A DNA stretch of 52,423 bases from a virus. Lineage: Duplodnaviria > Caudoviricetes. Position 1 is the first letter of the stretch. Every line of letters begins with the position of its first letter. Where the stretch lies: the IMG/VR virus record IMGVR_UViG_3300020172_003900, positions 1 to 52,423 of that record. One strand, 5' to 3'. Positions 27,201 through 43,262 of the stretch are shown piece after piece. The translations under genes and the position numbers were made by a program. The notes below the pieces were generated by a model that searched no databases, was not told the origin of the DNA, and saw only the letters and a list, made by a program, of their open reading frames with translations.

Positions 27201-28448
27201 TTAAATAATCCAGGAATTAACTTCAGATATTGATTTAACACATATTTTTTCTAAGGATAATACAACCTCATCAATATTTTCAATATCAACACCACCAAGA
27301 GACATTCTAAACCAACCTGCGTTTTTATTAGACCCAAAATATTCGAATGGTACCAACCCAACACCACAATGTTTAATTAAAAATTGTACATAGTTTTCAA
27401 CGTTACCAAAAAATTGAGATTCTCCTAAATAAATCGAAATATAGATACCCCCTTCAGGTTTTTGATAATCAATTCTAAACCTTCTTTGTTTTAACTCTTC
27501 AATTTTTTCACAGATTATATTTGATATTTCAGAATACTGTTTCACTTTATTAGAAACAAATTCATTCATTGAATTATAATCATTTAGATACTTTGCAACT
27601 GCCGTTTGTTCAGGTTTAGGAGACCAAGCTCCGATGTGAGAGAATATTTCGGTCATTTTAGAAATGATTGATTTAGGACCAAAAACCCAACCAACTCTAA
27701 CACCTGTGGCACATAAGGATTTAGATATTCCATCAACACAAATTAAATAATCACGTATTTCAGGACAAACTTCTAATGGATGAGTAAATAAACCATCAGA
27801 AACTAAGTCAGAATATATTTGGTCAAAAAACAAATATGTTTTTTTAGATTTTTCTTTATTAACCTCAACAATCTCATCACAGATTTGTTTTAGTGTTACT
27901 TTATCTATAACACGACCTGTAGGATTTTGTGGCGAACATAAACAAAGTAATCTTGTATTGTGTAGTTTACCTTTAACATCTTCAAAAGTTGGGAAAAACG
28001 AGTTTTCAGGTTTACATTCTATAGGGATTTTTATTGCTCCGTGTAAAAAAGAATAATGATTGTTATTCCAAGATGGTACAGGGTACATTACAGAATCGTC
28101 TGAATCAACAATAGTTTTAAATATTGTGTAAATTAATGGTCTAACGCCACACCCGATTAAAATTTCGTCTTCAGAATAACTAATCCCTCTTTTTTTATTA
28201 AGATATTCACTAACAGATTTTCTCAAATCCAATTCACCTGGAGACATTGGATAATTTGTTAAATCATTTTCGTATGACTCAACAATATACTCTTTAAGTT
28301 TTTTTGGAATTGGATTTATTTTAGGGTTAAAATCACCAATACTGAAGTTTTGTACTGGTTTTGTTTTTGATACCTCTTTAATTTGTTGTGAAATTTTAAT
28401 AATTTCAGAACCAACAATATTGTTTCCTACGAATGATAAATTTTGCAT
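27201..28448 (-). CDS. PLP-dependent aminotransferase class I/II
   Basis: SPQNPTG, DQIY, GISKSLCATGVRVGW, FRMS. Confidence 0.88.
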   Translation of the reverse strand: MQNLSFVGNNIVGSEIIKISQQIKEVSKTKPVQNFSIGDFNPKINPIPKKLKEYIVESYENDLTNYPMSPGELDLRKSVSEYLNKKRGISYSEDEILIGCGVRPLIYTIFKTIVDSDDSVMYPVPSWNNNHYSFLHGAIKIPIECKPENSFFPTFEDVKGKLHNTRLLCLCSPQNPTGRVIDKVTLKQICDEIVEVNKEKSKKTYLFFDQIYSDLVSDGLFTHPLEVCPEIRDYLICVDGISKSLCATGVRVGWVFGPKSIISKMTEIFSHIGAWSPKPEQTAVAKYLNDYNSMNEFVSNKVKQYSEISNIICEKIEELKQRRFRIDYQKPEGGIYISIYLGESQFFGNVENYVQFLIKHCGVGLVPFEYFGSNKNAGWFRMSLGGVDIENIDEVVLSLEKICVKSISEVNSWII

Positions 28449-28490
28449 AAGGTAAGTATAAATCTTTGTATGAACTTAGTCAACTTTTTG

Positions 28491-28576
28491 CGGAAGATGT
28501 TGGGCTCGAACCAACGCGACCTTTCAGTCCTACCTGTTTAGCAAACAGGCCCCTTCACCAACTTGGGTAATCTTCC
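28491..28576 (-). tRNA. tRNA-Ser(GCT)
   Basis: Anticodon arm CCTGT-TTGCTAA-ACAGG; long variable arm. Confidence 0.92.
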
Positions 28577-28581
28577 AATAG

Positions 28582-28655
28582 TAGTCCCTGAGGGATTCGA
28601 ACCCCCAACCTTTTCGTCCGTAGCGAAACGCTCTAATCCGTTGAGCTAAGGGACT
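28582..28655 (-). tRNA. tRNA-Arg(ACG)
   Basis: TTTCG-CTACGGA-CGAAA. Confidence 0.92.
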
Positions 28656-28675
28656 AAAAAACGTTCAGCTCTTTT

Positions 28676-28860
28676 GAGTTGTCCCCAATACCGAATTTCA
28701 GCGGCAACCCACTTTCGTGAGGGGTTAGAACTAGTGTGTTAACTTACTCCTGCCACTGGTACACTAACCAACCGACTTAGACTCAAGTAATCGGCTCAGG
28801 TCCCTGTGGTAGTGACACCACTTCTCATCATACGGGAGCATATTAGGCGGGAACTACCTC
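28676..28860 (-). ncRNA. Putative structured ncRNA (~185 nt), unassigned
   Basis: GC-rich tRNA spacer; closing stems, several hairpins incl. CAC-GAAA-GTG, possible pseudoknot. Confidence 0.45.
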
Positions 28861-28894
28861 TTTTTTTATATTTCCGAAACACGGAAACCACGTG

Positions 28895-28982
28895 CGGTGA
28901 GAGTAGGATTCGAACCCACGGTACCCTTTCAGGTACTTCGGTTTTCAAGACCGACGCAATCGACCAACTCTGCCATCTCACC
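28895..28982 (-). tRNA. tRNA-Ser(TGA)
   Basis: TCGGT-CTTGAAA-ACCGA; long variable arm. Confidence 0.92.
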
Positions 28983-29015
28983 GTATAACCGACCTAGCTC
29001 GGTAAACACATCGGA

Positions 29016-29092
29016 TGGGGTAACTAACGGGAATCGAACCCGTGACACCTTGAACCACAATCAAGTGCTCTACCTACTGAGCTATAGCCACC
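29016..29092 (-). tRNA. tRNA-His(GTG)
   Basis: CTTGA-TTGTGGT-TCAAG; encoded G-1, C73 and CCA. Confidence 0.92.
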
Positions 29093-29099
29093 ATATTAG

Positions 29100-29232
29100 T
29101 AGTCAAGGTCGGACTCGAACCGAATACCGTTCAAGACGGAATAGACAACCTTACAACTTCTCGCGTCCAAAGGGTTATGGACCGTGGTGTCTTCAGGACT
29201 CGGGTACCATCCCTCATTACGCCCACTTGACT
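29100..29232 (-). ncRNA. Oversized tRNA-like RNA (133 nt) without a canonical anticodon arm
   Basis: Acceptor AGTCAAG/CTTGACT plus T-arm TCGG-TTCGAGT-CCGA, ~100-nt multi-hairpin interior. Confidence 0.6.
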
Positions 29233-29235
29233 AAT

Positions 29236-29303
29236 TACCCCACTTCACCAGATTAACGGACTGGCTGCCATATGGGAGTGGGGGTTTCCCGTTAATTCGG
29301 GAC
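29236..29303 (-). ncRNA. Putative small pseudoknotted RNA after tRNA-Phe
   Basis: TCCCG/CGGGA, CCCCACT/AGTGGGG, CCAG/CTGG stems; TTAACGG complementary to CCGTTAA. Confidence 0.35.
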
Positions 29304-29307
29304 TCCG

Positions 29308-29380
29308 TGGAACGGGGCGGAATCGAACCGCCGACACCTTGCTCTTCAGGCAAGTGCTCTACCAACTGAGCTACCGTTCC
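29308..29380 (-). tRNA. tRNA-Phe(GAA)
   Basis: CTTGC-CTGAAGA-GCAAG. Confidence 0.92.
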
Positions 29381-29384
29381 AAGT

Positions 29385-29636
29385 ATGATAATGATGGAGT
29401 ACCCGTCTCGCTCCAATCTTAACGGCTTCTTCTGAGTTTTATCAGTGCACTGGCCGAGGGTGCTGAATTCCGATTCCACTCTGGATTGTCGACATCCATT
29501 GAATGGGGAAAACCATTATCAATATTATTAAAATAAATCACTTTCGCCCCCTGTATATAGTTTACAGTAAACTATCTACTGTAAACCTTGGATGCTTAAG
29601 GTCATCCTTAACTATTAAGGGAGCCACCCGTGATTT
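29385..29636 (-). ncRNA. One or two putative structured ncRNAs, unassigned
   Basis: Domain 29535-29636 closed by AAATCAC/GTGATTT with long internal hairpins; domain 29385-29521 closed by TGATAATG/CATTATCA. Confidence 0.35.
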
Positions 29637-29648
29637 AATATTTTTTTC

Positions 29649-29803
29649 TTCAAAGAACTCACTTTTCAGGGGGAGTAGGTCACCATCCTACCAACTACCC
29701 ACTCCCCCGTCCAACTACAATACAAATGTACTGCGATTTTTTTAATTAACCAAACATTTTTTATTCACTTCCGAGTTTGGACGTGTTTTACTTCCGAGTT
29801 TGG
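29649..29803 (-). promoter_or_regulatory. Internal promoter of tRNA array 1 with boxA-like element and upstream 14-bp direct repeat
   Basis: TTTG-N20-TACATTTG (29723-29730); GTTCTTTGAA 29649-29658; CCAAACTCGGAAGT x2 at 29767-29780 and 29790-29803. Confidence 0.6.
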
Positions 29804-29812
29804 CATTTTTTG

Positions 29813-29885
29813 TAGTTCCTGTAGGAATCGAACCTACGACATCTTGTATGTAAAACAAGCGCTCTCCCAACTGAGCTAAGGAACT
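29813..29885 (-). tRNA. tRNA-Val(TAC)
   Basis: CTTGT-TTTACAT-ACAAG. Confidence 0.92.
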
Positions 29886-29890
29886 GTAAG

Positions 29891-29962
29891 TACCGATGGG
29901 TGGTATCGAACCACCGACAACTTCCGTATGAAAGAAGTGCTCTACCACTGAGCTACATCGGT
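29891..29962 (-). tRNA. tRNA(CAT), probably elongator Met
   Basis: CTTCT-TTCATAC-GGAAG; paired 1-72; Met versus Ile2 not certain. Confidence 0.8.
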
Positions 29963-29968
29963 ATTTTG

Positions 29969-30039
29969 TTGTCCCTGAAGGATTCGAACCTCCACTAGGT
30001 GGACCAAAACCACCTGTCCTGCCATTAGACCAAAGGACA
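29969..30039 (-). tRNA. tRNA-Gln(TTG)
   Basis: GGTGG-TTTTGGT-CCACC; U1-A72. Confidence 0.92.
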
Positions 30040-30046
30040 ATTTAAG

Positions 30047-30127
30047 TGGGAGTGGAGGGATTCGAACCCCCAATGTCATAAGACCACTGATTTACAGTCA
30101 GCTAAGCAACCGTTGCTCAACACTCCC
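30047..30127 (-). tRNA. tRNA-Tyr(GTA)
   Basis: CTGA-CTGTAAA-TCAG; long variable arm. Confidence 0.9.
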
Positions 30128-30131
30128 AATT

Positions 30132-30258
30132 TAGGAAAACAGAAGATGGTCGAGTGGACATCTGTTTTTACGATTAGCATTACTTGGGTGAATACCTGCC
30201 AACTCCGATTGTACTAGTCAGTATTCACTCTCGAACTATCAGTACAATCATTCCCTAA
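30132..30258 (-). ncRNA. Putative three-hairpin RNA with loop-loop pairings
   Basis: Stems GATTGTACT/AGTACAATC and AAAACAGA/TCTGTTTT; loop GTGAATAC complementary to loop GTATTCAC. Confidence 0.5.
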
Positions 30259-30275
30259 TCAACCTAATTTTTTTG

Positions 30276-30347
30276 CGGCCAGGGAGAATTACGATATCTC
30301 GACCTATCGCTTAACAGGCGATTGCTCTTCCTCTGAGCTACCTGGCC
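30276..30347 (-). tRNA. tRNA-Asn(GTT), atypical T-arm
   Basis: ATCGC-CTGTTAA-GCGAT; T-loop ATCGTAA. Confidence 0.85.
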
Positions 30348-30886
30348 AATTTTTTACTTATTGAGTAACCATTATGTTCTAAAATTTTAATACACCACAT
30401 TAATAATTCGTCAGTTGTTAAGTCACCTTTCATATTGTTAACAGTCGGAGTTAAAATCCCCAAATTTTCAAGGGAGTTATTCCCCCCTCTACTAACAGGT
30501 ATTATGTGGTCAAAATGATATTCGTCTTTAAATAAGTTAATATCAATTCCCGTCAAATAACATTTAGCATCCTCACCAAATTTTTCAATAACCGTCTCCC
30601 AAGTAAATGTAGTTTCAAAGTCTTTATTAATTTTACCCTGAACGGAATTATCACGTTTATTAAATTTTCGAACACATTCTTTTTTATACCTATTTTTTCT
30701 GTATTTATAAGTTTCTAATTTTTTTAGAATAATGTTTTCTCTTCGTTTTTTAGTTCTATCCTTAACTTTTTCTTTTTGACCTACACCACAATAATATGAA
30801 ATTGTTGATTTAGAACAATTTAGTATTTCCTGTATTTGTTTGTAAGTTTTACCTTCTTCTCTAAGTTGTAATATTTTTTCTTTCAT
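30338..30886 (-). CDS. HNH endonuclease with N-terminal HTH (putative free-standing homing endonuclease)
   Basis: LREEGKTYKQIQEILNCSKSTISYY HTH; FDHIIPVSRGGNNSLENL...NNMK; stop lies inside the tRNA-Asn 5' end. Confidence 0.85.
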   Translation of the reverse strand: MKEKILQLREEGKTYKQIQEILNCSKSTISYYCGVGQKEKVKDRTKKRRENIILKKLETYKYRKNRYKKECVRKFNKRDNSVQGKINKDFETTFTWETVIEKFGEDAKCYLTGIDINLFKDEYHFDHIIPVSRGGNNSLENLGILTPTVNNMKGDLTTDELLMWCIKILEHNGYSISKKLAR

Positions 30887-30957
30887 AATACTCTTTATTA
30901 ATAAATATTACATTACTCTAAAAAGTTCGATACAATCATTAAAAATTCGAACTATTG

Positions 30958-31029
30958 CACGGGTGGAGAATTACGATATCCCGACACCTGGTTTTGGAGA
31001 CCAGTGCTCTGCCCCTGAGCTACACCCGT
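30958..31029 (-). tRNA. tRNA-Trp(CCA), atypical T-arm
   Basis: CTGGT-CTCCAAA-ACCAG; T-loop ATCGTAA. Confidence 0.85.
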
Positions 31030-31034
31030 ATTAG

Positions 31035-31108
31035 AGGTCAGAGTCGGATTCGAACCGACGAATACTTGTTTTGCAGACAAGCCCCTTAAACCACTTGGGT
31101 ATCTGACC
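31035..31108 (-). tRNA. tRNA-Cys(GCA)
   Basis: CTTGT-CTGCAAA-ACAAG; U73. Confidence 0.92.
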
Positions 31109-31112
31109 GTAG

Positions 31113-31187
31113 TGTCCCCGAAGAGATTCGAACTCTTGACCCCTCCATTAAAAGTGGAGTGCTCTAAACCAACTGAGCTACGAAGAC
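31113..31187 (-). tRNA. tRNA-Lys(TTT)
   Basis: CTCCA-CTTTTAA-TGGAG. Confidence 0.92.
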
Positions 31188-31193
31188 ATTAAG

Positions 31194-31267
31194 TTGTCAC
31201 AGATGGGCTCGAACCATCGACCTTTCGCGTATCAGGCGAACGCTCTAACCAACTGAGCTATGTGACA
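31194..31267 (-). tRNA. tRNA-Ile(GAT)
   Basis: TTCGC-CTGATAC-GCGAA. Confidence 0.92.
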
Positions 31268-31335
31268 ATGTTTAGTTTTACAAAACAAATATAACCATTT
31301 TTTGGTATATAACGCTCTATTTTACTAATTTTTTG

Positions 31336-31407
31336 TCGGGGTAGCAGGAGTCGAACCTGCCGCCTCTTGGTCCCAAACCAAGCGTCTCTCCCCGAGACTA
31401 TACCCCG
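31336..31407 (-). tRNA. tRNA-Pro(TGG)
   Basis: CTTGG-TTTGGGA-CCAAG; C1-G72. Confidence 0.9.
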
Positions 31408-31425
31408 ATTATTTACTTACCAATA

Positions 31426-31436
31426 TTTCAAAGAAC
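31426..31436 (-). promoter_or_regulatory. boxA-like element
   Basis: GTTCTTTGAAA between terminator and first tRNA; 19 nt identical to 38357-38375. Confidence 0.6.
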
Positions 31437-31440
31437 ACAT

Positions 31441-31476
31441 AAAACAAAAAACCCCGAACCTAAGTTGGTTCGGGGT
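31441..31476 (-). terminator. Attenuator terminator of tRNA array 1
   Basis: ACCCCGAACC-AACTTA-GGTTCGGGGT-TTTTTGTTTT. Confidence 0.85.
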
Positions 31477-31512
31477 CTCGATGTTTGTTATTTGTCTAAC
31501 TTAATCTTATCC

Positions 31513-31623
31513 TTAATTTGTTTCATCAACAACCGAACCAATAAATGCCATACGCGGATACCAACAGTTACTAAACTGTTTTACCACGTTAATAATCGAC
31601 ATATGTTGTTTATTAGTTCTCAT
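31513..31623 (-). CDS. Leader peptide 1 (36 aa) MRTNKQHMSIINVVKQFSNCWYPRMAFIGSVVDETN
   Basis: TACCTTTG promoter box at 31662-31669; 3' part contains antiterminator TTGGTTCGG; codons match array-1 anticodons. Confidence 0.75.
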   Translation of the reverse strand: MRTNKQHMSIINVVKQFSNCWYPRMAFIGSVVDETN

Positions 31624-31707
31624 TATTTCTAATTTTATTGTTGTTTTACTTATAACTATTACAAAGGTACAAAAAGTTTCCTGATTGTCAAATAATTTTC
31701 TGTTTTT

Positions 31708-33306
31708 TTATGCTCCGCCAGTATTTTTCTTATCAATATCCTTTGCGGCGTTCATTGCGTAGGATTTAGTTTGACCCTTAACATACTTACCAACCGCCTT
31801 TTTATTTGTTAGTTTAATATCAACACCTGTTTTCTCTTTAATCTTATCCGCTAAAGCATCCTCACCTTTATTTTTAGCAATATTCATCATCTCTTGAACT
31901 GTTTTATTACTACTTTGTTTTTTAATAAAATTATCGGTAAGTGTCTCAATTTCTTTTTTATGATTATTAATTGTTTGAACAACTTTAAGTTCTTCAGGAT
32001 TAAATGGTATTTTATTAATTGTTTTTTCGGCAATTTTTTCAAAGGTTGCCGAACCAATACCTTTAAGTGCAGGTATTTCGGATGCAAATGGTAAAACACT
32101 AAATGCCATTGTAAGACCAGCTTCGGCGTTTTTACCTTCTGAGAAATATATTGCAGAATCGGCAATTCCAAGACCTGCCGCTAATAAAGGTCCAACAAAT
32201 GGTATAAACATACTTGCAATTTGTAACCCTTCAATAACTTTGTGACCTTCTTCTGCAGTTAATCCTCCCCCAACACAAGTAGGTTTTGCTCTATCGTAAA
32301 CTCCCTTAATTTGGGAAGCATTTACCGAGTCGTAAAAAGACGCCATAAAGTTATAAACCCCTTCAGGGAAATATACGGTTGCATTATTATTTGTACTGGC
32401 AACTACGTCTTGTAATAATTTACCCCATTGAAAATAAAAATCGGATAGAATAAAGTTGGCATATAATGGAGTAATTTTATTTTTATTGTGTGTCCATATT
32501 GCAGATTGTGGATTATTTATTAAATCTTTTATTGAGGTACCATAAGATGTTAATTTTTTACTTACCATTTTAACATTACCTAAACTAGACAAACCTATTT
32601 GTAAACATTCTGTATTATTCCACCCAACTCTATTTGTTTGGATATCGGTTAAATATTTTATACTAAAAAGAGCGGCTAAGTTATAGTGTTGGTTAGGACT
32701 ACTTGGAGTTGGGAAAGTATATCCTCCAAAACTATCGACAATAAGTCCTTGTGATTTTAAGAATTGATAATTTTTTTGATATTCTGTACTTGTTTCATAA
32801 CAAGCCTTTTTACCTTTAGAATCAACATACTGACCGTTTTTAGAACAAGCCTCACTTCTTTCTTTCTTTTCTTTTTGCTCTTGCCAAGTTGCTAAGTTTT
32901 CCCAATAATATTGGTCTCCATATGATTTACCACATAAATTTTTAGATAGATAACCTGACAAAACTTTTGTTTTATCGTAAAACCAAGAATTTGCAGAACT
33001 ATTCCAAAACTTACCAGCGTTTTGACCGTCACAATAATAAACAGTTGATGGTTTTATTTTTTTACCAACAACTCTATCAACAGATGCGGTAAATGATGCT
33101 CCTCCTGTGGATTTATCTTTCTTATCTCCATATTGGTGAGCGGTGAATCTTGTTCCTTTAGGTATTTTAATTTGACCACCAAGCATAGTATTTTTAGTCA
33201 AAATTCTATCTTTAACTAACGTATACGTTTGATTAACAGGCTTATTAGTTTTAGTTGCCTGTTCAATAATACTTTTAAATTGATTTTCGGTAATGATTAC
33301 TCTCAC
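31708..33306 (-). CDS. Putative internal virion protein with C-terminal hydrophobic hairpin (PT-TG-like)
   Basis: GTG start; MRVIITENQFKSIIEQ propeptide-like; IASMFIPFVGPLLAAGLGIADSAIYFSEG. Confidence 0.55.
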   Translation of the reverse strand: MRVIITENQFKSIIEQATKTNKPVNQTYTLVKDRILTKNTMLGGQIKIPKGTRFTAHQYGDKKDKSTGGASFTASVDRVVGKKIKPSTVYYCDGQNAGKFWNSSANSWFYDKTKVLSGYLSKNLCGKSYGDQYYWENLATWQEQKEKKERSEACSKNGQYVDSKGKKACYETSTEYQKNYQFLKSQGLIVDSFGGYTFPTPSSPNQHYNLAALFSIKYLTDIQTNRVGWNNTECLQIGLSSLGNVKMVSKKLTSYGTSIKDLINNPQSAIWTHNKNKITPLYANFILSDFYFQWGKLLQDVVASTNNNATVYFPEGVYNFMASFYDSVNASQIKGVYDRAKPTCVGGGLTAEEGHKVIEGLQIASMFIPFVGPLLAAGLGIADSAIYFSEGKNAEAGLTMAFSVLPFASEIPALKGIGSATFEKIAEKTINKIPFNPEELKVVQTINNHKKEIETLTDNFIKKQSSNKTVQEMMNIAKNKGEDALADKIKEKTGVDIKLTNKKAVGKYVKGQTKSYAMNAAKDIDKKNTGGA

Positions 33307-33329
33307 ATATATAAATACTTTAAGAGTAT

Positions 33330-33860
33330 AAAAAAAGAAAGGTTCTAAATCATCCCCACGCCATTTTGGGAGAACCTTTCAAAGTTAAGTATATCTTGGC
33401 GACATAATATCCCACACCATTATGACTAAGATTTGTTAGCCCATAGTAACCATCCTTGGTGGGTTTCTACTCTCACACTCCGTCCATATTTACTAACCTA
33501 ATCGATGTGTCATAGATTTTCAGATATTGCGTTCAGTGTTACCCTCAGGACATCTTCACCCTACCCCCAAAGTTACGTGGCGAGTCTCACTCGGAAGCTG
33601 AGTGTGTATTGTAGAATTGTCCAGTATTTCTACAACTTGTGGATTGTATTACGACTAATTAAAGCCCCCTTACCCCCTCTATCCATAATGGGGAATCCTA
33701 TCTAACCTGTGTAGCCTCCCCCATAGCCTTGAAGCCTTCAAGTCAGGTTCACACACCATAACAGTCGGATATCTCTGTTAATCGTGGGGTCTTAAATAGA
33801 GTATGACGTATGCTCGTTTTATAGTTGTTTCCATCCGCAAACTCACGGTTCTCTCTATTT
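33330..33860 (-). ncRNA. Large stand-alone ncRNA (~520 nt), class unassigned
   Basis: Own promoter TTTG-N19-TACATTTG (33867-33897) and terminator GAAAGGTTCT/AGAACCTTTC plus U7; GC-rich, no sense ORF of 60 aa or more, many hairpins. Confidence 0.6.
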
Positions 33861-33900
33861 CTTTTACAAATGTATGGATTTTTTTTTAATCTTCAAACAA

Positions 33901-34485
33901 TTAAGATAAAAAAGACAAAACTTTTTCTTTAATTCCAGATTGTTTTAACCCTTCATTCGCGCTTGGAGTTAAGACAAAATTTTCTAATCCCCAATCGTGA
34001 GTAAACTTCATACCATAATACATACCTGTTTTACCCATATCAAGGTCATCTATTGAAACCCAATGAGTAACTTCGGGATGGTCGTGTAAGTACTGTTTAA
34101 TTTCAATTGTACGAGTTTGTTGTAAATCCCAATCTCTAGACCAAATAAAGTTATTTCCGTGTACCGTACATTCACTTAAATTAGGTGTAAAGGCGATTGG
34201 TTTTTTTGAAATACCTTTTGACTCATAGTACTCACCCATTTCCTCAACATTTGCCCATCTTTTCCAATCCGAAGATACAACAATCTCAGCACCAGTTTCT
34301 TCTAAAATTTTATTTAAAACTTTAACCGCCTTTTCGTTGAAGTTGTCAAATCTATACTCGATTGGCATACCTTTAACATCCATAGTAAGTTTATTACCTT
34401 CCCATTTTTGTCTTTTCTTGTAACGACCTCCCCACTCTGTGGATAAACAGATTACTCCGTCGTGGTCTAAAAATATAACTTTCAT
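33901..34485 (-). CDS. HAD-family phosphatase (Swiss-Army-Knife RNA-repair-like)
   Basis: IFLDHDGV, IVVSSDW, WVSIDD. Confidence 0.82.
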   Translation of the reverse strand: MKVIFLDHDGVICLSTEWGGRYKKRQKWEGNKLTMDVKGMPIEYRFDNFNEKAVKVLNKILEETGAEIVVSSDWKRWANVEEMGEYYESKGISKKPIAFTPNLSECTVHGNNFIWSRDWDLQQTRTIEIKQYLHDHPEVTHWVSIDDLDMGKTGMYYGMKFTHDWGLENFVLTPSANEGLKQSGIKEKVLSFLS

Positions 34486-34486
34486 A

Positions 34487-34654
34487 TTATTTTTTAATTA
34501 TATAACCTAAATTTTCAAAAATTAAAATCATCCCTACAAATGATAAGATAATACAAATTATCTTCATAAACAAATCTAAAGGTGTTTTTTTACTCCAAAT
34601 AACACCAAAAAAGAAAAACAATAGTGTTGCGATAATATTGAATATTAGTTGCAT
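34487..34654 (-). CDS. 55-aa two-TM membrane protein (not in track)
   Basis: MQLIFNIIATLLFFFFGVIWSKK...LGYIIKK; fills the gap between neighbours. Confidence 0.5.
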   Translation of the reverse strand: MQLIFNIIATLLFFFFGVIWSKKTPLDLFMKIICIILSFVGMILIFENLGYIIKK

Positions 34655-34659
34655 AGTTT

Positions 34660-35613
34660 TTATTTATTTATTAGGTCAAAGATACTAATTTTTTTGTAAG
34701 GTTTGTTAGGGATTATTGTAATTTTTTTAATTTTTTTCGATAATTCTACAGGGTCTTGGTTTGTTTCAAGATATTCTTTAATTAATGATTGTAATGGTTT
34801 TGCCAAACTATTATCAATATTAGTGTGAGTACAATTTGAAACTGCGTAATTTACAACTTTTGTCTTTTCTTTATTGATTGGGTAAGCGTTACCTCCTGAT
34901 AATAATTCTTCTTGGAATTCATCAATATCTCTAACATAATAATTTAAACACACTTTAACGTTAGATGGTATCATACAATTTAAAACTAACGTTTCTTGAA
35001 CTCTTCTAGTTTTATCCTTATACTGAGGGTCAATTGTTATTAACAAATCTACGTAAATATTTAAACTTTTAAGTTTTTCACAAGCTTTAATTAGATTATA
35101 AGAGCCTAAACTATGACCTAATAACACTACTTTACCGTTAGGATTTAATTGTTTGAAATAATAAACCTCTTGTATAATGTCTTCAGTTGTCAAAAGTAAA
35201 TTGTGTGTACCAGTGTAGGTAGATACGTGGGTACTATCATTAAAATATTTTTTTTCGATTTCACCTAAACCTGGAATATCTCTACTATCGTGATTTTCAA
35301 CCATTGTTTTATTTTTACTTAAAACATCTTCGTGAGGACTAACAAAAGTTCCTTGGGCAATAATAACTAAAGTGTTTTCACTCTTTTTGAGATAATTCAT
35401 ATCATACGGAGTTAGTTCAACTTTATTACTATAATAAGTTAACTTCATTTCGTGTGCGGTTATTAAAAACCCTAAAATCCCTAACAAAAATAATGGGATT
35501 GATTTTAATTTTAATTTGGTAACTTTAATTAAAAACACAAATAACACTAATGTTGCACATAGGTTAAATATTAATTGTGAGTGTACTAAGAAAGATGATA
35601 TAATTTCTGTCAT
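34660..35613 (-). CDS. Membrane-anchored alpha/beta hydrolase
   Basis: Two N-terminal TMs; VVLLGHSLG; ITIDP; THTNID. Confidence 0.7.
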   Translation of the reverse strand: MTEIISSFLVHSQLIFNLCATLVLFVFLIKVTKLKLKSIPLFLLGILGFLITAHEMKLTYYSNKVELTPYDMNYLKKSENTLVIIAQGTFVSPHEDVLSKNKTMVENHDSRDIPGLGEIEKKYFNDSTHVSTYTGTHNLLLTTEDIIQEVYYFKQLNPNGKVVLLGHSLGSYNLIKACEKLKSLNIYVDLLITIDPQYKDKTRRVQETLVLNCMIPSNVKVCLNYYVRDIDEFQEELLSGGNAYPINKEKTKVVNYAVSNCTHTNIDNSLAKPLQSLIKEYLETNQDPVELSKKIKKITIIPNKPYKKISIFDLINK

Positions 35614-35689
35614 ATTTGTTTTTTTATTTTAATTATAATAAAAAATTACAGTAAATAAATTATGGAAATGAGTTTGTTAGAATGTTTTG

Positions 35690-35763
35690 TAGTGACGATG
35701 GGATTTGAACCCATAACCTTGACCGTATAAGAGTCCTGCGCTCACCAATTACGCCACGTCACT
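35690..35763 (-). tRNA. tRNA-Ile(TAT)
   Basis: GACT-CTTATAC-GGTC; acceptor AGTGACG/CGTCACT. Confidence 0.8.
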
Positions 35764-35768
35764 ATATG

Positions 35769-35842
35769 TGGTCCCTGTAGGGTTCGAACCTACGACCCCC
35801 TGATTATGAGTCAGATGCTCTAACCGACTGAGCTAAGGGACC
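35769..35842 (-). tRNA. tRNA(CAT), probably Ile2 (lysidine)
   Basis: GGTCCCTTAGCTCAG...CTGACTCATAATCAG, resembles ileX-type tRNAs. Confidence 0.82.
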
Positions 35843-35853
35843 TAAATAAAAAA

Positions 35854-35953
35854 GTAGTCAGAGGTTGGTGGGACTATTACCTAGGGGCTAGCACCCGTTC
35901 CCTAATAATCGGTGGACACCGATTGCCCAAATTAGGTACACCAACTTGACTAC
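35854..35953 (-). ncRNA. Putative 100-nt structured RNA, ends similar to the 29100-29232 element
   Basis: GTAGTCA/TGACTAC and GTTGGTG/CACCAAC closing stems; AATCGGTG/CACCGATT hairpin. Confidence 0.5.
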
Positions 35954-35960
35954 AGATACC

Positions 35961-36131
35961 TTAGAACACTATTAAATCTCCGTGGCAATTATCCCACTCA
36001 TCAATCCAATTTCTAATTGGTTCAATATTAATGTTTTCGGTATCAAATCTCTCGACTTGAGTACCTTGTTCTTCGGTGTTAACTTTTTCAGTTATATTTT
36101 TATTTTCGTTTGGGTCAAATACATAATACAT
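35961..36131 (-). CDS. 56-aa hypothetical protein (not in track)
   Basis: MYYVFDPNENK...HGDLIVF; A-rich upstream. Confidence 0.4.
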   Translation of the reverse strand: MYYVFDPNENKNITEKVNTEEQGTQVERFDTENINIEPIRNWIDEWDNCHGDLIVF

Positions 36132-36153
36132 TTTATTTGTGTGGGTTTTTTTG

Positions 36154-36227
36154 AGCCTCCAGTCGGAATCGAACCAACGACCTGCTGATTACAAATCAGC
36201 CGCTCTGACCTGCTGAGCTATGGAGGC
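36154..36227 (-). tRNA. tRNA-Thr(TGT)
   Basis: GCTGA-TTTGTAA-TCAGC. Confidence 0.92.
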
Positions 36228-36240
36228 AATTACCATATAA

Positions 36241-36525
36241 TTATTTGATTTTCTTATATATGTAAGTTATAGTATCTCCGATTTTATAGATATCTGACCT
36301 ATCTGTTGAAAATCTTTGACCACACTCTGTTTTGTAGTAATACTTTGGAGTTAATTCGTTGATAGCGACAGGTTGTTTAACCCAAGAACTGTCAATCACA
36401 CACTTAACTACTTTATCACCAGGTTCAATTTTATTACGGTTTTCACATCCAACTAAAAAGAAGGCAACAAAACTAATCAATACGAACCAAAGAAGTGCTA
36501 ACAAGATAGGGATATTTTTTTTCAT
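36241..36525 (-). CDS. Small lipoprotein-like protein
   Basis: Hydrophobic N-terminus ending LVGC; TAAATTTG promoter box upstream. Confidence 0.6.
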   Translation of the reverse strand: MKKNIPILLALLWFVLISFVAFFLVGCENRNKIEPGDKVVKCVIDSSWVKQPVAINELTPKYYYKTECGQRFSTDRSDIYKIGDTITYIYKKIK

Positions 36526-36548
36526 ACAACAAATTTACAACATATTTT

Positions 36549-36797
36549 TTAAACCGCCAAATACTTAATTGAATTTTTCTTAATCCATTCAGGGTCGTGT
36601 TTAAACTCTTTCCAATTATCAAAATCTTTTAATTCTTCCAAAACCTCAATCGGTATTAAAGTAAATCCATCAGGAGCAATACCGTCAAATTTATGATACG
36701 ATGCGTATTCAATTTTTTCTTTAATCATTTGACAAAATAATTCATCATTAATAAAATTATTATGTTCTTGTTCTAAAAAGTCTTCGTTAGTATTCAT
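36549..36797 (-). CDS. Hypothetical protein
   Basis: Start moved to MNTNEDF to avoid overlap with tRNA-Arg. Confidence 0.55.
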   Translation of the reverse strand: MNTNEDFLEQEHNNFINDELFCQMIKEKIEYASYHKFDGIAPDGFTLIPIEVLEELKDFDNWKEFKHDPEWIKKNSIKYLAV

Positions 36798-36811
36798 AAT
36801 CAATTGATAAG

Positions 36812-36885
36812 TGACCTCGGAAGGATTCGAACCTTCGACCCACAACTTAGAAGGTTGTTGCTCTATCCATCTGAGCTACGAGGCC
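36812..36885 (-). tRNA. tRNA-Arg(TCT)
   Basis: ACAAC-CTTCTAA-GTTGT. Confidence 0.92.
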
Positions 36886-36890
36886 ATATT

Positions 36891-37067
36891 TTATATTTTT
36901 TTAATGTTATATTTATGACCTGAGTCTGAATTTAATTCAAATATTTTCCTCATTTGATTAGCCTCGTCCTCAGTCTCAAATTCCCATATCTCATTTTGAG
37001 AATTCAATATTATTACGGGCAATTCAACACCGTTTAAATTTTTAATAAATTTTATAATAACCCACAT
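36891..37067 (-). CDS. 58-aa hypothetical protein (not in track)
   Basis: MWVIIKFIKNLNGVELPVIILNSQNEIWEFETEDEA...; TACCTTTG promoter box near 37090. Confidence 0.5.
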   Translation of the reverse strand: MWVIIKFIKNLNGVELPVIILNSQNEIWEFETEDEANQMRKIFELNSDSGHKYNIKKI

Positions 37068-37116
37068 AGTTTTTTTGTTTCTTTCATTACAAAGGTACGG
37101 ATTAAATATGAATTAA

Positions 37117-37275
37117 TCAAATAAGTCCAAGTAAAATTAGTGATTTATGGATTAATAACAACATTAATATGAATACGCCAAAAATCACAGTATATCCAAA
37201 AACACGATTATTACCCATCACTTGTTTTTTTGAACGTCCTTGCCATTCATCAGAATCCCAATCATCATTACTCAT
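37117..37275 (-). CDS. 52-aa single-TM protein (not in track)
   Basis: MSNDDWDSDEWQGRSKKQV... then hydrophobic C-terminus. Confidence 0.45.
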   Translation of the reverse strand: MSNDDWDSDEWQGRSKKQVMGNNRVFGYTVIFGVFILMLLLIHKSLILLGLI

Positions 37276-37302
37276 ACCTATAAGTATTTAATTGTTTATT
37301 TG

Positions 37303-37374
37303 CGGTCCCACGGGGAATCGAACCCCGAACTCAGCCGTGACAGGGCTGCATTATAGCCGTTTAACTATGAGACC
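37303..37374 (-). tRNA. tRNA-Asp(GTC)
   Basis: CAGCC-CTGTCAC-GGCTG; G73. Confidence 0.92.
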
Positions 37375-37379
37375 TTTTG

Positions 37380-37452
37380 AGCGGATAGTGAGAATCGAAC
37401 TCACATCTTCAGCTTGGAAGGCTGAAGTAATGAACCATTATACGATATCCGC
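37380..37452 (-). tRNA. tRNA-Gly(TCC)
   Basis: TCAGC-CTTCCAA-GCTGA; U73. Confidence 0.92.
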
Positions 37453-37461
37453 TTATTATTG

Positions 37462-37534
37462 AGCGGTAGACAGGATTCGAACCTGCGACCCTAACCTTGG
37501 CAAGGTTATGCTCTACCAACTGAGCTACTACCGC
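37462..37534 (-). tRNA. tRNA-Gly(GCC)
   Basis: TAACC-TTGCCAA-GGTTA; U73. Confidence 0.92.
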
Positions 37535-37619
37535 GTTTAGATGAGTCGTGGACTTGTGTACCACTTTTGTCCCCCTTTAAATTATTCACTAACCCCAGGT
37601 GTAGGGAAACCCATCTTAG

Positions 37620-37694
37620 TTGCGGGGGCGGGATTCGAACCCACGTAGTTTGGCTTATGAGACCAAGCTGGAACCAACTCCAGTCCACCCCGCG
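37620..37694 (-). tRNA. tRNA-fMet-like (CAT), copy 2
   Basis: C1:A72 mismatch; TTGGT-CTCATAA-GCCAA. Confidence 0.8.
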
Positions 37695-37798
37695 ATATAT
37701 CTTTGTCATCACTTCGGCCACATCGTGAAAGCCGCCCCTCACGCGTTGTTTAAAGGAATCCGATTGCGGCCTCATCCTACCGAGTTATGATAACTTTG

Positions 37799-37871
37799 TT
37801 GCGAGAGGAGGATTCGAACCTCCGACCTCAAGGTTATGAGCCTTGCGAGCTACCACTGCTACTATCTCGCG
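37799..37871 (-). tRNA. tRNA-fMet(CAT)
   Basis: C1:A72 mismatch; CAAGG-CTCATAA-CCTTG. Confidence 0.88.
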
Positions 37872-37877
37872 ATGTTG

Positions 37878-37951
37878 TGGAGATGGTGAGAATCGAACTC
37901 ACCTCAGATTGATTGCAAATCAATCTCGTCGGCCTTGAGACATACACCCCC
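37878..37951 (-). tRNA. tRNA-Ala(TGC)
   Basis: ATTGA-TTTGCAA-TCAAT; G3-U70. Confidence 0.85.
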
Positions 37952-37957
37952 ATCATT

Positions 37958-38239
37958 TTAAACGTTGTACTTATCTCCTAATTTATTAATTAGGTCAAGT
38001 TCTTCGTTACTCATTCTATGATAAGAATTGGCAATTCTATCACAAAACATTCTGTGGTCTTTTTCCATCCAACCCATTTTAGTGTCTGACACTAAAATAG
38101 ATGTACTTGAGATATGACCGTCCTCGACCAAAGCTATAATAAGCTCTTTAAGTTCTCGAGGTGAACAAGCGGTTAAAAAGTCGTCAACACTAACTTCAAT
38201 TTCCGCCTCAACTTCCACATAATCCGAAAATTCTGGCAT
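37958..38239 (-). CDS. Hypothetical protein
   Basis: 93-aa ORF between tRNAs. Confidence 0.6.
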   Translation of the reverse strand: MPEFSDYVEVEAEIEVSVDDFLTACSPRELKELIIALVEDGHISSTSILVSDTKMGWMEKDHRMFCDRIANSYHRMSNEELDLINKLGDKYNV

Positions 38240-38259
38240 AATTATTTTTTTTTAGTTTG

Positions 38260-38331
38260 TAGTCCGTGCGGGAATCGAACCCGCCTTTTATCCGTGAAAG
38301 GGATATGTCCTAACCGATAGACGAACGGACC
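38260..38331 (-). tRNA. tRNA-Glu(TTC)
   Basis: TATCC-CTTTCAC-GGATA. Confidence 0.92.
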
Positions 38332-38346
38332 ATTTAAAATCTTTAA

Positions 38347-38377
38347 CAAAGATACAACCAATATTTCAAAGAACAAA
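38347..38377 (-). promoter_or_regulatory. boxA-like element overlapping a consensus Bacteroidota promoter
   Basis: TTTG-N19-TATCTTTG with GTTCTTTGAAA (38364-38374) inside. Confidence 0.55.
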
Positions 38378-38391
38378 ATTTAAAACTCATT

Positions 38392-38426
38392 AAAAACAAA
38401 AAACCCATCTCTTTTGGAGATGGGTT
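38392..38426 (-). terminator. Attenuator terminator of tRNA array 2
   Basis: AACCCATCTC-CAAAA-GAGATGGGTT-TTTTGTTTTT. Confidence 0.85.
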
Positions 38427-38450
38427 CAGTGAATTCATAGTATAGGAATA

Positions 38451-38525
38451 TCACACCATCTCCATTGGAGTAGTCGCTTCAGTTCTATCTGTCCCACCTA
38501 TTAGTATGATATGTAATGTTTTCAT
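38451..38525 (-). CDS. Leader peptide 2 (24 aa) MKTLHIILIGGTDRTEATTPMEMV
   Basis: Last codons contain antiterminator TGGAGATGG; codons match array-2 anticodons. Confidence 0.75.
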   Translation of the reverse strand: MKTLHIILIGGTDRTEATTPMEMV

Positions 38526-38586
38526 TTGCAGTTTTATTCGTTTTTTATTAAATATACCTATATAACGTAAAAAGTCAAATTTTATT

Positions 38587-40404
38587 TTAAAAATTAAATC
38601 CAAGTTTACCTTTTAATGGTTTAAGTTTAGTTTTATTATTAGTTTTATTTGGTTTTTCTATTGGTTTTGTTTCATCTCGTCTATTAATTATAACATCCTT
38701 ATTATTACCAACATCTACCTTTCTAACAATTTTATTATTAGAACTAAGTAAAGATAACACGTTTTGTCTAACATTATTATTTGAAATGTTAGTCTCATCC
38801 ATTTTAAATTCTACGATAGTCTCAGGTTTTAAAACTTTTTCCTCAACAGGTTTAATATATTTTTTAATCTCAGGGTTTTTAGAATCTAAAACTCTAACTG
38901 AACTTGTTTTGTCTAATTTTTTAATTACTTCACTAATATTATGACTAACAATATCTTTGTTTTTTATAATATTTTTATTATTTGTTTCATTATTTAATAA
39001 TTTTACATATGTAAAATCTAAACAATTATAAATTGGTTCGAAATGTGAAGTTTTTAATTCTTCTAATGGTCCAAAATATTTTTTATTTCTGGACAATTGA
39101 ACATATTCTTTTCTTAAATCTGATTTAAAATTTGTTTTAGGGTCACTAGTTAAACCTTTACTGTGAAGTCTCCTATAAAATAAAACAGATTTAGTTAAAT
39201 TTATTTTAACTCCATTTTTTTGTATTCTACCCATAAAGTCAGAGTCCGCGGCGCACCTCCATCCTTCAAATCCATTTAAGTTAAGAAAAATTTCTTTATG
39301 TATACCAAAAACCCCTTCACCCCATAAATTATTATCTTTTTTTGATTTAATATTTTCTAAATTAAAATCACCTGAAAAATTATAAAATTTTGGTTTAACA
39401 CATTCAAATTCGGATAATTTACTAATTATTTCATTAATCATAGTTTTATCCATAATATCATCTGAATCAAAAAATAATAAGTTTTTTGATTTTGAATATA
39501 ATGTTAAAGTATTTTTAATGACATAAGGTCCTACATTTTCTTTGAAATAATAAAATTTAATATGAGGATTAAACTTATTTTGATTAACATATTTTAAAGT
39601 ATTTCTACAACTATCTATTCCCACCAAAACTTCAAAACTTATACTATCACCGCAAGACAAAATAACTGAATCTAAACATTCTTTTAAAAACTCAACATTA
39701 TCGTATGTCGGAACAATAATACTAATTTTCTTATCGGTTAAAACATCATTTGTTAATACTGTTTGTTTTAAGTCTGATTTATATTCATTATTATAAATTG
39801 ATTCGTTTATCATTTGTTGGGTAACAAACCCTGAATTATGTCTTACACAAATAATATCTATATTATTTTCAATTGCATATTTACCTACCCAAACATCTGC
39901 CATATTAGGTTCCCTAAAATAATCCATATTTACTTTAAATAAATCAGTATGAAAAGCCATAACACCAGTCCCTCCAAATTGGACTTTAGTGTCTTTATTT
40001 AAAAGTTGGTTAAAATGAAATAATTGATTTTTATCCGAATAATAACTTTTTATGGGAGGGTTGTTAAAATTTCTTCCGTGAATTGTTATAAATGATTTAC
40101 GTTTATATTCCTCAATTTTACCTATCATATATTCAGAATAATTTTCTGGATATATTAAATCATCATCAATAGTGAAAAAGTACCCTTCAGAATTTATTAA
40201 ATTGTAAAATTTATAGGCGTCTCCTTTATCATTATCACTAATAAATAAATTAATTTTTTTATCAAATAATTCCACAGGAATTTCATCATAATCATTTAAA
40301 GTCAAATTGATTATGTCGCATTGATTATATATCGAATTAATAGTATTAATTAAAGTATCTGCTCTTTTGTAGCTCGCTATGTTATATATTACTTTGTCTT
40401 TCAT
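38587..40404 (-). CDS. Double GT-A (family 2-like) glycosyltransferase with low-complexity C-terminal tail
   Basis: FTIDDDLIYP; ISIIVPTYD...FFDSDD; start at MKDKV coupled to upstream stop. Confidence 0.82.
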   Translation of the reverse strand: MKDKVIYNIASYKRADTLINTINSIYNQCDIINLTLNDYDEIPVELFDKKINLFISDNDKGDAYKFYNLINSEGYFFTIDDDLIYPENYSEYMIGKIEEYKRKSFITIHGRNFNNPPIKSYYSDKNQLFHFNQLLNKDTKVQFGGTGVMAFHTDLFKVNMDYFREPNMADVWVGKYAIENNIDIICVRHNSGFVTQQMINESIYNNEYKSDLKQTVLTNDVLTDKKISIIVPTYDNVEFLKECLDSVILSCGDSISFEVLVGIDSCRNTLKYVNQNKFNPHIKFYYFKENVGPYVIKNTLTLYSKSKNLLFFDSDDIMDKTMINEIISKLSEFECVKPKFYNFSGDFNLENIKSKKDNNLWGEGVFGIHKEIFLNLNGFEGWRCAADSDFMGRIQKNGVKINLTKSVLFYRRLHSKGLTSDPKTNFKSDLRKEYVQLSRNKKYFGPLEELKTSHFEPIYNCLDFTYVKLLNNETNNKNIIKNKDIVSHNISEVIKKLDKTSSVRVLDSKNPEIKKYIKPVEEKVLKPETIVEFKMDETNISNNNVRQNVLSLLSSNNKIVRKVDVGNNKDVIINRRDETKPIEKPNKTNNKTKLKPLKGKLGFNF

Positions 40405-43238: not shown

Positions 43239-43262
43239 TATTTATAAATAAAGAAAATCGTG

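Follow-up and report, generated by a model that had tools for sequence, protein, structure and literature searches.

The closest described counterparts of the element reported here are the transcription attenuators of the enterobacterial amino-acid operons (trp, his, leu, thr, pheA, ilvGMEDA, and ilvBN). The element is a short leader open reading frame (ORF) located ahead of a tRNA gene array on the minus strand of the IMG/VR record IMGVR_UViG_3300020172_003900 (Duplodnaviria; Caudoviricetes), which corresponds to a viral contig in its entirety (52,423 bp; hereafter, the window). It shares with the amino-acid operon attenuators a 5' leader ORF with cognate regulatory codons and a terminator, the 5' arm of which can alternatively pair with the 3' segment of the ORF. 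A preference for rare codons is also common to both, as is multivalent sensing, which is found in the ilvGMEDA and ilvBN leaders. The rare codon of the Salmonella leu leader is CUA. However, the amino-acid operon attenuators regulate enzymes and sense one to three amino acids in runs of codons, whereas the phage unit would regulate tRNAs and samples 15 of them (up to approximately 20 in relatives). It further differs in being encoded by a phage, in a region 1:2 hairpin with no clear conservation, and in the boxA element that follows the attenuator.

A terminator/antiterminator switch tuned to charged tRNA is likewise present in the pheST attenuators and the T-boxes of aminoacyl-tRNA synthetase genes. 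T-boxes, however, work without an ORF by binding uncharged tRNA themselves, and the pheST leader senses one amino acid. In the phage unit, the sensed molecule would be the product of the regulated genes, and the control would thus be direct autoregulation. The rRNA antitermination leader (boxB-boxA-boxC; NusB/NusE/NusA/NusG/SuhB) is a third relative, since a 17-mer of the window is found in identical form upstream of 16S and 23S rRNA genes; in the phage, however, boxA lies downstream of the attenuator, and the attenuator hairpin takes the position of boxB. The bar minigenes of phage lambda are also very short phage ORFs with an effect tied to a particular tRNA. They consist of 2–3 codons and sequester tRNA through peptidyl-tRNA drop-off; unlike the phage unit, they involve neither a terminator switch nor the regulation of tRNA genes.

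In full-text searches, the coverage of which did not extend to subscription journals and supplements, no paper was found that ties leader peptides or attenuators to phage tRNA arrays. The class of mechanism, classical attenuation, is known; new are the target (tRNA genes) and the breadth (at least 15 tRNAs), as well as the codon list that changes with array content, the encoding by a phage, and the coupling to boxA. The purpose and control of phage tRNA arrays have been debated for decades, as noted in an earlier paper (PMC10264068).

We propose that leader ORF 1 is probably the sensor of a multi-specific ribosome-mediated transcription attenuator, which tunes the expression of the tRNA array to tRNA supply; we assign this reading of the sequence a probability of roughly 0.8. 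A leader-peptide attenuator sampling every downstream tRNA had been suggested in a preliminary description of the window, and the suggestion was supported by the finding that leader composition changes with the array in related phages. The locus combines a short ORF behind a predicted promoter, codons cognate to the array, a terminator between the ORF and the array, and an antiterminator exclusive with the terminator. The features of this first unit are as follows:

31662..31692, minus strand: predicted promoter of leader 1, Bacteroidota-type, with a -33 element TTTG (31692..31689), a 19-nt spacer, and a -7 element TACCTTTG (31669..31662)
31513..31623, minus strand: leader ORF 1, 36 codons and TAA, peptide MRTNKQHMSIINVVKQFSNCWYPRMAFIGSVVDETN, with 19 of the 20 amino acids (Leu absent)
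31549..31614, minus strand: regulatory run, codons 4–25 of leader ORF 1; 22 codons, all readable by array 1, with 15/15 anticodon classes
31533..31541, minus strand: region 2 of leader 1 (putative antiterminator strand), TTGGTTCGG, ORF nt 83–91
31448..31479, minus strand: predicted intrinsic terminator/attenuator of leader 1, with a 13-bp stem (7 GC pairs), a 6-nt loop, and a T-tract; region 3 is 31473..31465
31425..31436 (17-mer to 31420), minus strand: boxA-like element GTTCTTTGAAAT, between terminator 1 and tRNA-Pro
28490..31407, minus strand: tRNA array 1, with Pro-TGG, Ile-GAT, Lys-TTT, Cys-GCA, Trp-CCA, an HNH ORF, Asn-GTT, Tyr-GTA, Gln-TTG, Met-CAT, Val-TAC, Phe-GAA, His-GTG, Ser-TGA, Arg-ACG, and Ser-GCT (ARAGORN, Rfam, and direct reading of the Trp loop)

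On the minus strand, the promoter (31692..31662) is followed by the ORF (31623..31513), the terminator (31479..31448), the 12-mer (31436..31425), the start of tRNA-Pro (31407), and the array, which ends at 28490. The terminator starts 33 nt past the stop codon of the ORF and ends 40 nt ahead of tRNA-Pro.

The match between the leader and the array was real and far outside chance. Codons 4–25 were identical, letter for letter, to the 22 codons given in the preliminary description, and the absence of Gly, Asp, Glu, Thr, Ala, and Leu codons among them was confirmed. The claim that all 22 codons are readable by array 1 and that all 15 classes are sampled holds under strict wobble, Trp included. 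None of the listed anticodons was reassigned: ARAGORN called 14 of the 15, and Trp-CCA (31029..30958) was detected by Rfam alone (47 bits), with its anticodon loop read directly. ARAGORN did call Trp-CCA at the corresponding place in two relatives (L130 and L131). In the 42 ORFs with a length of 100 aa or more, 49% of the codons belong to the array-1 set; base composition by itself would give 56%. For 22 codons to lie entirely within the set and cover 15/15 classes, the exact probability is 2.1e-11 under coding usage and 1.8e-9 under the base-composition null.

Since the 22-codon stretch had been picked post hoc, every frame of the contig was scanned. Among the maximal in-set runs in six frames (n = 26,307), the leader 1 run contained 15 classes and the runner-up 10, and the maxima in 100 Markov-1 simulated contigs were 9–13 classes, with none reaching 15. 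All 15 classes were present in only 5 of the 31,946 open 22-codon windows, all of them overlapping leader ORF 1 (starts 31617..31605). Thus, the exact probability and the six-frame scans agreed that the match is uncommon by chance, which was the check proposed with the preliminary description. A 36-mer with at least 19 different residues was obtained in 1.4% of simulations. Amino-acid diversity by itself is not rare; what is specific to leader 1 is its agreement with the array.

A second leader with the same property is located ahead of the other tRNA array of the window and represents an independent second case of an array-matched leader in the same contig. Its features are listed below:

38549..38579, minus strand: predicted promoter of leader 2, TTTG, 19-nt spacer, TATATTTA; the consensus scan also matches 38578..38551
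38451..38525, minus strand: leader ORF 2, 24 codons, MKTLHIILIGGTDRTEATTPMEMV; all 9 array 2 anticodon classes, 8 of them in codons 2–17
38456..38464, minus strand: region 2 of leader 2, TGGAGATGG, complement of CCATCTCCA in the terminator 5' arm and loop
38401..38427, minus strand: predicted intrinsic terminator/attenuator of leader 2, with an 11-bp stem followed by a T-tract
38374..38363, minus strand: boxA-like 12-mer, in the spacer of a promoter-like site (38347..38377, TTTG-N19-TATCTTTG)
35689..38331, minus strand: tRNA array 2, with Glu-TTC, Ala-TGC, Met-CAT, an odd tRNA-like gene, Gly-GCC, Gly-TCC, Asp-GTC, Arg-TCT, Thr-TGT, Met-CAT, and Ile-TAT (ARAGORN and Rfam)

All 9 array-2 classes were found in only 6 of the 37,211 open 18-codon windows, all starting at 38528..38507. 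When the two Leu tRNAs encoded on the opposite strand were added to array 2, all 11 classes were present in only 8 of the 29,822 open 24-codon windows, all starting at 38546..38525; codons TTA (codon 4) and CTA (codon 8) of leader 2 match these Leu tRNAs. Codon 4 of the leader 2 counterpart in L130 and L131 is ATA or ACA, and Leu sensing by leader 2 is therefore not claimed. Within array 2, the tRNA-like gene at 37619-37694 (-) had no assignable anticodon (ARAGORN "???"; Rfam 34 bits), and Ala-TGC (37877..37951) was called by ARAGORN and missed by Rfam.

The relationship between leader and array content was then followed in related phages. Searching by synteny with the upstream gene, the product of which has 532 aa, led to a single relative (L001, 54% identity), whose 13.6-kb locus was free of tRNAs. 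INPHARED contained no close phage: the 5-kb region gave short matches at the tRNA level only, and the leader region of a relative with a family 1 leader (L123) gave none. A query of IMG/VR with the 17-mer yielded at least 115 loci. Among the matches listed, about half had tRNAs directly after the motif, and many had the order of promoter, small ORF, terminator, motif, and tRNAs. The relatives comprised 28 records, for which 14–19 kb around the tRNA regions were fetched; these are fragments of large genomes, with one complete record of 270,865 bp. The window and the 28 records provided 47 leader/array pairs, of which 27 were non-redundant; one of these was a false call in the 3' part of a longer ORF, and its removal left 26.

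Across the 26 leaders, the mean share of array classes sampled was 0.857 for the leader's own array and 0.514 for shuffled pairings, and none of 100,000 shuffles was as high; every class of the array was sampled by 12 leaders. In a cross control within records, the own array scored higher than the other array for 14 of 15 leaders, with a precision of 0.50–0.91 versus 0.00–0.26. The codons read by the own array were concentrated in the predicted productive-stall windows (346/495, 70%) compared with the ORF tails (116/282, 41%; Fisher p = 5.5e-15). The window leader 1 and its counterpart in L130 share only 14 of 36 residues; both sample 15/15 classes of identical arrays. The same rule was seen in at least five dissimilar leader types.

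Examples from individual lineages illustrate how closely codon lists follow arrays. A three-unit lineage has MKTMNTNTNLDTPTTPNGDAGT.. ahead of Pro, Asn, Asp, Gly, Thr, and Ala; MRTTLLHTLLLDRQGLLRRLMP, with TTA, CTA, and AGA codons, ahead of Leu-TAA, Arg-TCT, and Leu-TAG; and MKTTIKHMVFSTQQKSICWYERM.. ahead of Glu, Val, Phe, Lys, Cys, Trp, Tyr, Met, Gln, Arg-ACG, His, Ser, Ile, and Ser. In L126, the Leu/Arg tRNAs lack a separate leader and trail the first array, the leader of which has acquired Leu and Arg codons. In L144, NLSLHSSLSYLLSYH (MKNLSLHSSLSYLLSYH..) stands ahead of Tyr, Ser, Tyr, His, His, Ser, Leu, Leu, and Leu. The complete record of 270,865 bp (G019; L137 11130-11330 (-)) contains a single 41-codon leader, MKTLIQHMGLNQSTFSWVGNCAIRKSDNRLPYTKLGDIIFE, with all 20 amino acids, and one array of 25 tRNAs, the first of which begins 10 nt past the end of the terminator. 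Codon choice within split boxes tracked the anticodons: AGA occurred with Arg-TCT, CGT with Arg-ACG, and TTA/CTA/TTG with the three Leu tRNAs of L144.

Rare codons were favored in the stall windows. CCG accounted for 9 of 15 Pro codons there and 15 of 423 in the genes of the window; TCG for 11 of 20 versus 59 of 647 TCN codons; and GTC for 8 of 15 versus 28 of 745 Val codons. The Gly codons GGG and GGA occurred 9 and 0 times in the stall windows and 91 and 221 times in the genes of the window. Rare, slow codons would sharpen the sensor, as in classical leaders. A separate observation concerns the beginning of the ORFs: nearly all leaders of the window and of L120-L147 start with M-K/R-T/N (ATG AAA/AGA ACN) irrespective of array content, and this start may be a translation-initiation context that lies outside the sensor.

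The pairing required for a switch was also found. As stated in the preliminary description, TTGGTTCGG (31541..31533) is exactly complementary over 9 nt to CCGAACCAA (31473..31465) in the 5' arm and loop of the terminator. The extension of this pairing by TTGATG/CATCGA, which had been put forward as well, is possible; however, RNAduplex picked a different extension. The region 2:3 duplex of leader 1 was calculated at -14.4 kcal/mol (RNAduplex), and transcript folding gave z = -6.0 for leader 1 and z = -3.1 for leader 2. Among the leaders of the window and the relatives, the duplex with the own terminator arm averaged -12.7 kcal/mol, compared with -8.7 for swapped arms, and none of 20,000 permutations was as good. 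The antiterminator pairing was conserved in the relatives, with compensatory changes in both leader families. In the family 1 alignment (13 relatives), 86.2% of the cells were paired, compared with 16–52% for slid partners, with 8 doubly changed cells and 0 of 500 shuffles as good; in family 2, the values were 92.9% and 44–65%, and 3 pairs had changed on both sides.

The effect of ribosome position was modeled by equilibrium folding of a transcript cut ahead of the terminator 3' arm under a 28-nt ribosome mask, a scheme that ignores sterics and kinetics. In leader 1, the antiterminator was predicted with stalls at codons 2–25 (partially at 14–19), and region 3 was free with the ribosome at codons 35–37. 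In a separate estimate, which placed the leading edge of a ribosome stalled at codon k at 3k+10, the last stall predicted to leave region 2 free was at codon 24 for leader 1 and at codon 17 for leader 2; in both cases, this is near the end of the array-specific codons. Rfam at the gathering threshold returned only tRNA matches for positions 27500..45000 of the window, with no curated leader family and no T-box.

The promoter pattern TTTG-N18-20-TANNTTTG had 11 matches in the contig versus 2.24 expected, a number reached in none of 100 shuffles, and one of the matches lies at leader 1. This suggests that the site functions as a promoter and that transcription would start ahead of leader 1. The 12-mer GTTCTTTGAAAT past terminator 1 occurs in three exact copies in the window, and all four boxA-like copies stand ahead of stable RNAs, namely array 1, array 2, the Leu tRNAs, and the transfer-messenger RNA (tmRNA). 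The last two belong to units that served for comparison:

43957..44462, plus strand: leaderless comparison unit, with a predicted promoter TTG-N20-TACATTTG, a boxA-like element (43992..44003), tRNA-Leu-TAA, and tRNA-Leu-TAG
18898..19336, plus strand: tmRNA comparison unit, with a predicted promoter (18898..18929), the boxA-like element GTTCTTTGAAAA (18934..18945), and the tmRNA (18949..19336)

The phage tmRNA was identified with Rfam RF00023 (86.5 bits), while ARAGORN was silent. An HNH endonuclease ORF (43465-43968 (+)) ends within the promoter of the Leu tRNAs.

The 12-mer past the terminator was at first read as a promoter; this was dropped when the 17-mer was found in rRNA leaders instead. 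The exact 17-mer GTTCTTTGAAATATTGG occurs at no fewer than 120 genome loci. Among the 120 listed, 19 have an rRNA 5' end downstream on the same strand (16S in 18, at 70–190 nt; 23S in one, at 45 nt), and these belong to Bacteroidota wherever the organism is named; the rRNA loci among these matches show a hairpin ahead of the 17-mer and a conserved TAGAAACATAG after it. Since the 17-mer is a component of rRNA leaders, the 12-mer is read as a boxA of the rRNA-operon type rather than as a promoter. The 12-mer lies within the coordinates given in the preliminary description but, on this reading, does not belong to the attenuator switch. We take the 17-mer of the window to resemble the boxA consensus. 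boxA binds NusB/NusE, and by analogy the boxA of the window would be expected to recruit both. The promoter type together with boxA point to a Bacteroidota host.

The mechanism that we propose from these elements would operate as follows. Transcription from the host-type promoter (31692..31662) would produce a transcript that opens with the 36-codon ORF, and in codons 4–25 of this ORF every one of the 15 downstream tRNAs is represented once or twice, in several cases by a rare codon. If any of the aminoacyl-tRNAs were scarce, a ribosome would stall within the run, leaving region 2 (ORF nt 83–91) free to pair with region 3. No terminator would then form, and RNA polymerase would read on, cross the rRNA-leader-type boxA, and transcribe the array of approximately 3 kb. 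The position of boxA after the attenuator would help read-through polymerases to cross the untranslated array without overriding the attenuator. If all 15 tRNAs were plentiful, the ribosome would cover region 2 as far as the stop codon and sit between regions 2 and 3, the 13-bp terminator would form, and transcription would end ahead of tRNA-Pro. The outcome would be negative feedback with an any-of-15 trigger, and the second unit (38579..38401) would exert the same control over array 2. The scheme assumes that the leader ORF is translated and that the ribosome footprint has the modeled geometry; stalling at single codons would presumably be sufficient. Possible triggers are host nucleases that deplete tRNAs, a mismatch in codon usage, and simple autoregulation.

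Several observations weigh against this reading. Most tRNA classes are sampled only once or twice in leader 1, and this low multiplicity per class differs from the tandem runs of classical attenuators. The region 1:2 hairpin, which would act as a pause or anti-antiterminator element, appeared in the minimum free energy fold of leader 1 in the window; however, it showed no clear conservation in the 13 relatives (60.8% of cells paired, 86 of 500 shuffles as good), in an alignment that may be imperfect there. Folding of leader 1, which the preliminary description had called for, gave the antiterminator with the ribosome stalled at codons 2–25, but also in the ribosome-free equilibrium fold of the truncated transcript. 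The untranslated state may therefore read through, unlike that of the trp attenuator. In leader 2, with the ribosome at the end of the ORF, region 3 paired upstream with 38499..38491, and the off-state was not reproduced. In addition, the 26 leaders share ancestry, and the shuffle p-values thus overstate their independence; the arrays of the relatives were called with ARAGORN only and are incomplete, as indicated by the Trp gene that it missed in the window. Four public metatranscriptome runs, available as contigs, contained pieces 90–99% alike mostly over tRNAs, some over intergenic stretches, and almost none over the leader, and are uninformative on leader expression, transcript ends, and read-through. 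Window DNA was present in freshwater metagenomes.

Additional promoters form the other group of contrary observations. A promoter-like match with full consensus (38377..38347) lies between terminator 2 and tRNA-Glu, and another promoter-like site (29754..29723) lies inside array 1. A -7-like box, TAnnTTTG, was found between the terminator and the first tRNA in 13 of the 26 leaders, window leader 2 included, which means that some arrays may also, or instead, use a promoter beyond the terminator; a second, unattenuated promoter may thus serve some arrays. Support for the proposed reading comes from 9 of the 26 leaders, in which the distance between the terminator and the first tRNA did not exceed 20 nt and measured 9–18 nt. 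This gap leaves no space for a separate promoter, and the arrays of those 9 must therefore rely on read-through. Transcripts beginning at the 38377..38347 site would be without boxA, since the 12-mer sits in its spacer.

Among the other explanations, the one that survives best accepts a real attenuator but makes it a probe of general translation capacity or amino-acid supply (host shut-off, starvation), or the source of a short RNA or peptide acting in trans. The sampling of most classes once or twice suggests weak sensitivity to each tRNA, as such a probe would have, and in the complete record the whole array does depend on a single leader, in which all 20 amino acids occur. Action in trans has a precedent in Sinorhizobium, where, according to two reports, terminated attenuator RNAs and leader peptides work in trans (PMC6614838, PMC7298713). 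Phages with two or three arrays, however, restrict each leader to the codons of its own array (14/15 leaders), which would be needless for a general probe, and the split-box codon choice follows the anticodons that are present. We therefore consider this explanation unlikely.

Still less probable is that the ORF encodes an autonomous micro-protein, expressed from a promoter of its own and ended by the terminator, past which the array would be transcribed separately, with no regulatory link. The promoter, ORF, and terminator do make a complete unit, and the peptides fall into families that keep an MKT/MRT start and share motifs such as HM..QQ..CW; the main point in favor of this view is the -7-like box in 13 of 26 gaps, together with the full consensus ahead of array 2 (38377..38347). 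It leaves unexplained, however, why composition tracks array content across phages, why 15/15 coverage is kept at 14/36 identity, and why in-array codons are concentrated upstream of the pairing segment (70% vs. 41%). Nor does it account for an ORF segment complementary, with covariation, to its own terminator arm, and the gap of 9–18 nt between terminator and tRNA in 9/26 leaders also contradicts it. Finally, a chance origin of the match in an AT-rich, out-of-frame-like stretch that avoids G-starting codons would draw on the high share of array-1 codons (49% of coding, 56% by base composition) and on the post hoc choice of the stretch, but is refuted by the joint probability (2e-11 to 2e-9), the outlier position in six frames, the failure of all 100 simulated contigs to reach it, the like property of the array 2 ORF, and the recurrence of the pattern in 28 other records.

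Comparable arrangements were found in other phage groups. Cellulophaga phage phi38:1 (KC821614.1; L268) has two leader and terminator units ahead of tRNA sub-arrays, at 7502-7425 and 6041-5952 (-) in L268 coordinates; in KC821614.1, the two leaders are located at 35283..35360 (+) and approximately 36744..36833 (+), respectively. The first comprises a -7 box, the ORF MKTIMNIATDIRTKGVKLLGRSRVL inside the annotated gp066 ("hypothetical protein"), and a GGGGAGG segment complementary to the terminator arm, followed by Lys, Ile, Gly, Met, Asp, Thr, Val, and Arg-TCT; directly past its terminator, there is a tRNA-like sequence with no ARAGORN call. The second unit has an unannotated leader ahead of Ser, Ser, Asn, and Phe. 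According to the published account, phi38:1 is cultured in Cellulophaga baltica and RNA-seq of the infection is available; the passages of that paper on tRNA and attenuation make no mention of such a feature (PMC5335546). In Ralstonia phage RsoM2USA (MG752970.1; L270 11411-11298 (-)), 31 of 36 codons of a 37-codon ORF are read by the array of 19 tRNAs that follows, with a terminator between them, and its 30-codon windows (27–29 codons in the set) rank at the top of the 9,323 six-frame windows at the locus. The tRNAs are unannotated in this stretch of the record, and hypothetical coding sequences are laid over them. The detector applied to these phages found no leader and terminator ahead of the array of Klebsiella phage KP12, which is a weak negative.

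These cases raise the possibility, which we put forward tentatively and at somewhat less than even odds, that the ORFs are the first recognized members of a widespread class of programmable many-tRNA attenuators in unrelated phages (freshwater jumbo-type Bacteroidota phages, phi38:1, and RsoM2USA). In such a class, each array would come with a leader that spells out its content in codons, and the array would be switched on when any listed tRNA becomes limiting, for example, through cleavage by a host anticodon nuclease. The unit would then be a tRNA homeostat with a built-in counter-defense sensor, and the leader would evolve by re-editing of its codon list upon the gain, loss, or transfer of tRNA genes between arrays.

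The surroundings of the two units provided further observations. The window encodes a T4-like portal, a T4-type large terminase, a ClpB-like ATPase, and an RNA-repair-type HAD protein, and contains 28 tRNA or tRNA-like genes (27 called by ARAGORN, with Trp-CCA added by Rfam). The HNH endonuclease ORF of array 1 (30338-30886 (-)) lies between tRNA-Trp and tRNA-Asn; L130 and L131 have no gap at this position. Between the two arrays, 33901-34485 (-) encodes a protein with a HAD_SAK_2 domain (HAD domain of "Swiss Army Knife" RNA repair proteins; E = 1.7e-20), which is consistent with a phage that would defend its own tRNA pool. The adjacent stretch 33310-33897 (-), of approximately 550 nt, contains no ORF longer than 66 aa, is relatively G+C-rich, and lies behind a consensus promoter (33897..33867). 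Metatranscriptome contigs 90–97% alike pile up at 33399..33870, with a summed depth of approximately 726 (X16) and 223 (X19), and Rfam gave zero matches for the stretch at E <= 1; it is possibly an abundant phage non-coding RNA of a new kind. Three gaps in array 1 (28656-28893, 29092-29306, and 29381-29811 (-)) are also covered by contigs from RNA runs, for example at 28669..28894, 29124..29291, and 29404..29534, and may contain additional small RNAs or an internal promoter.

If the proposed attenuator is real, phages regulate their tRNAs by demand, and classical attenuation, familiar from amino-acid operons, also covers the tRNA pool. The proposal predicts that the codon list of a leader forecasts the content of its array and that leader changes date the gains and losses of tRNA genes, and it is directly testable in the cultured and harmless pair of Cellulophaga baltica and phi38:1. 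The element would also offer synthetic biology a natural any-of-N codon sensor.

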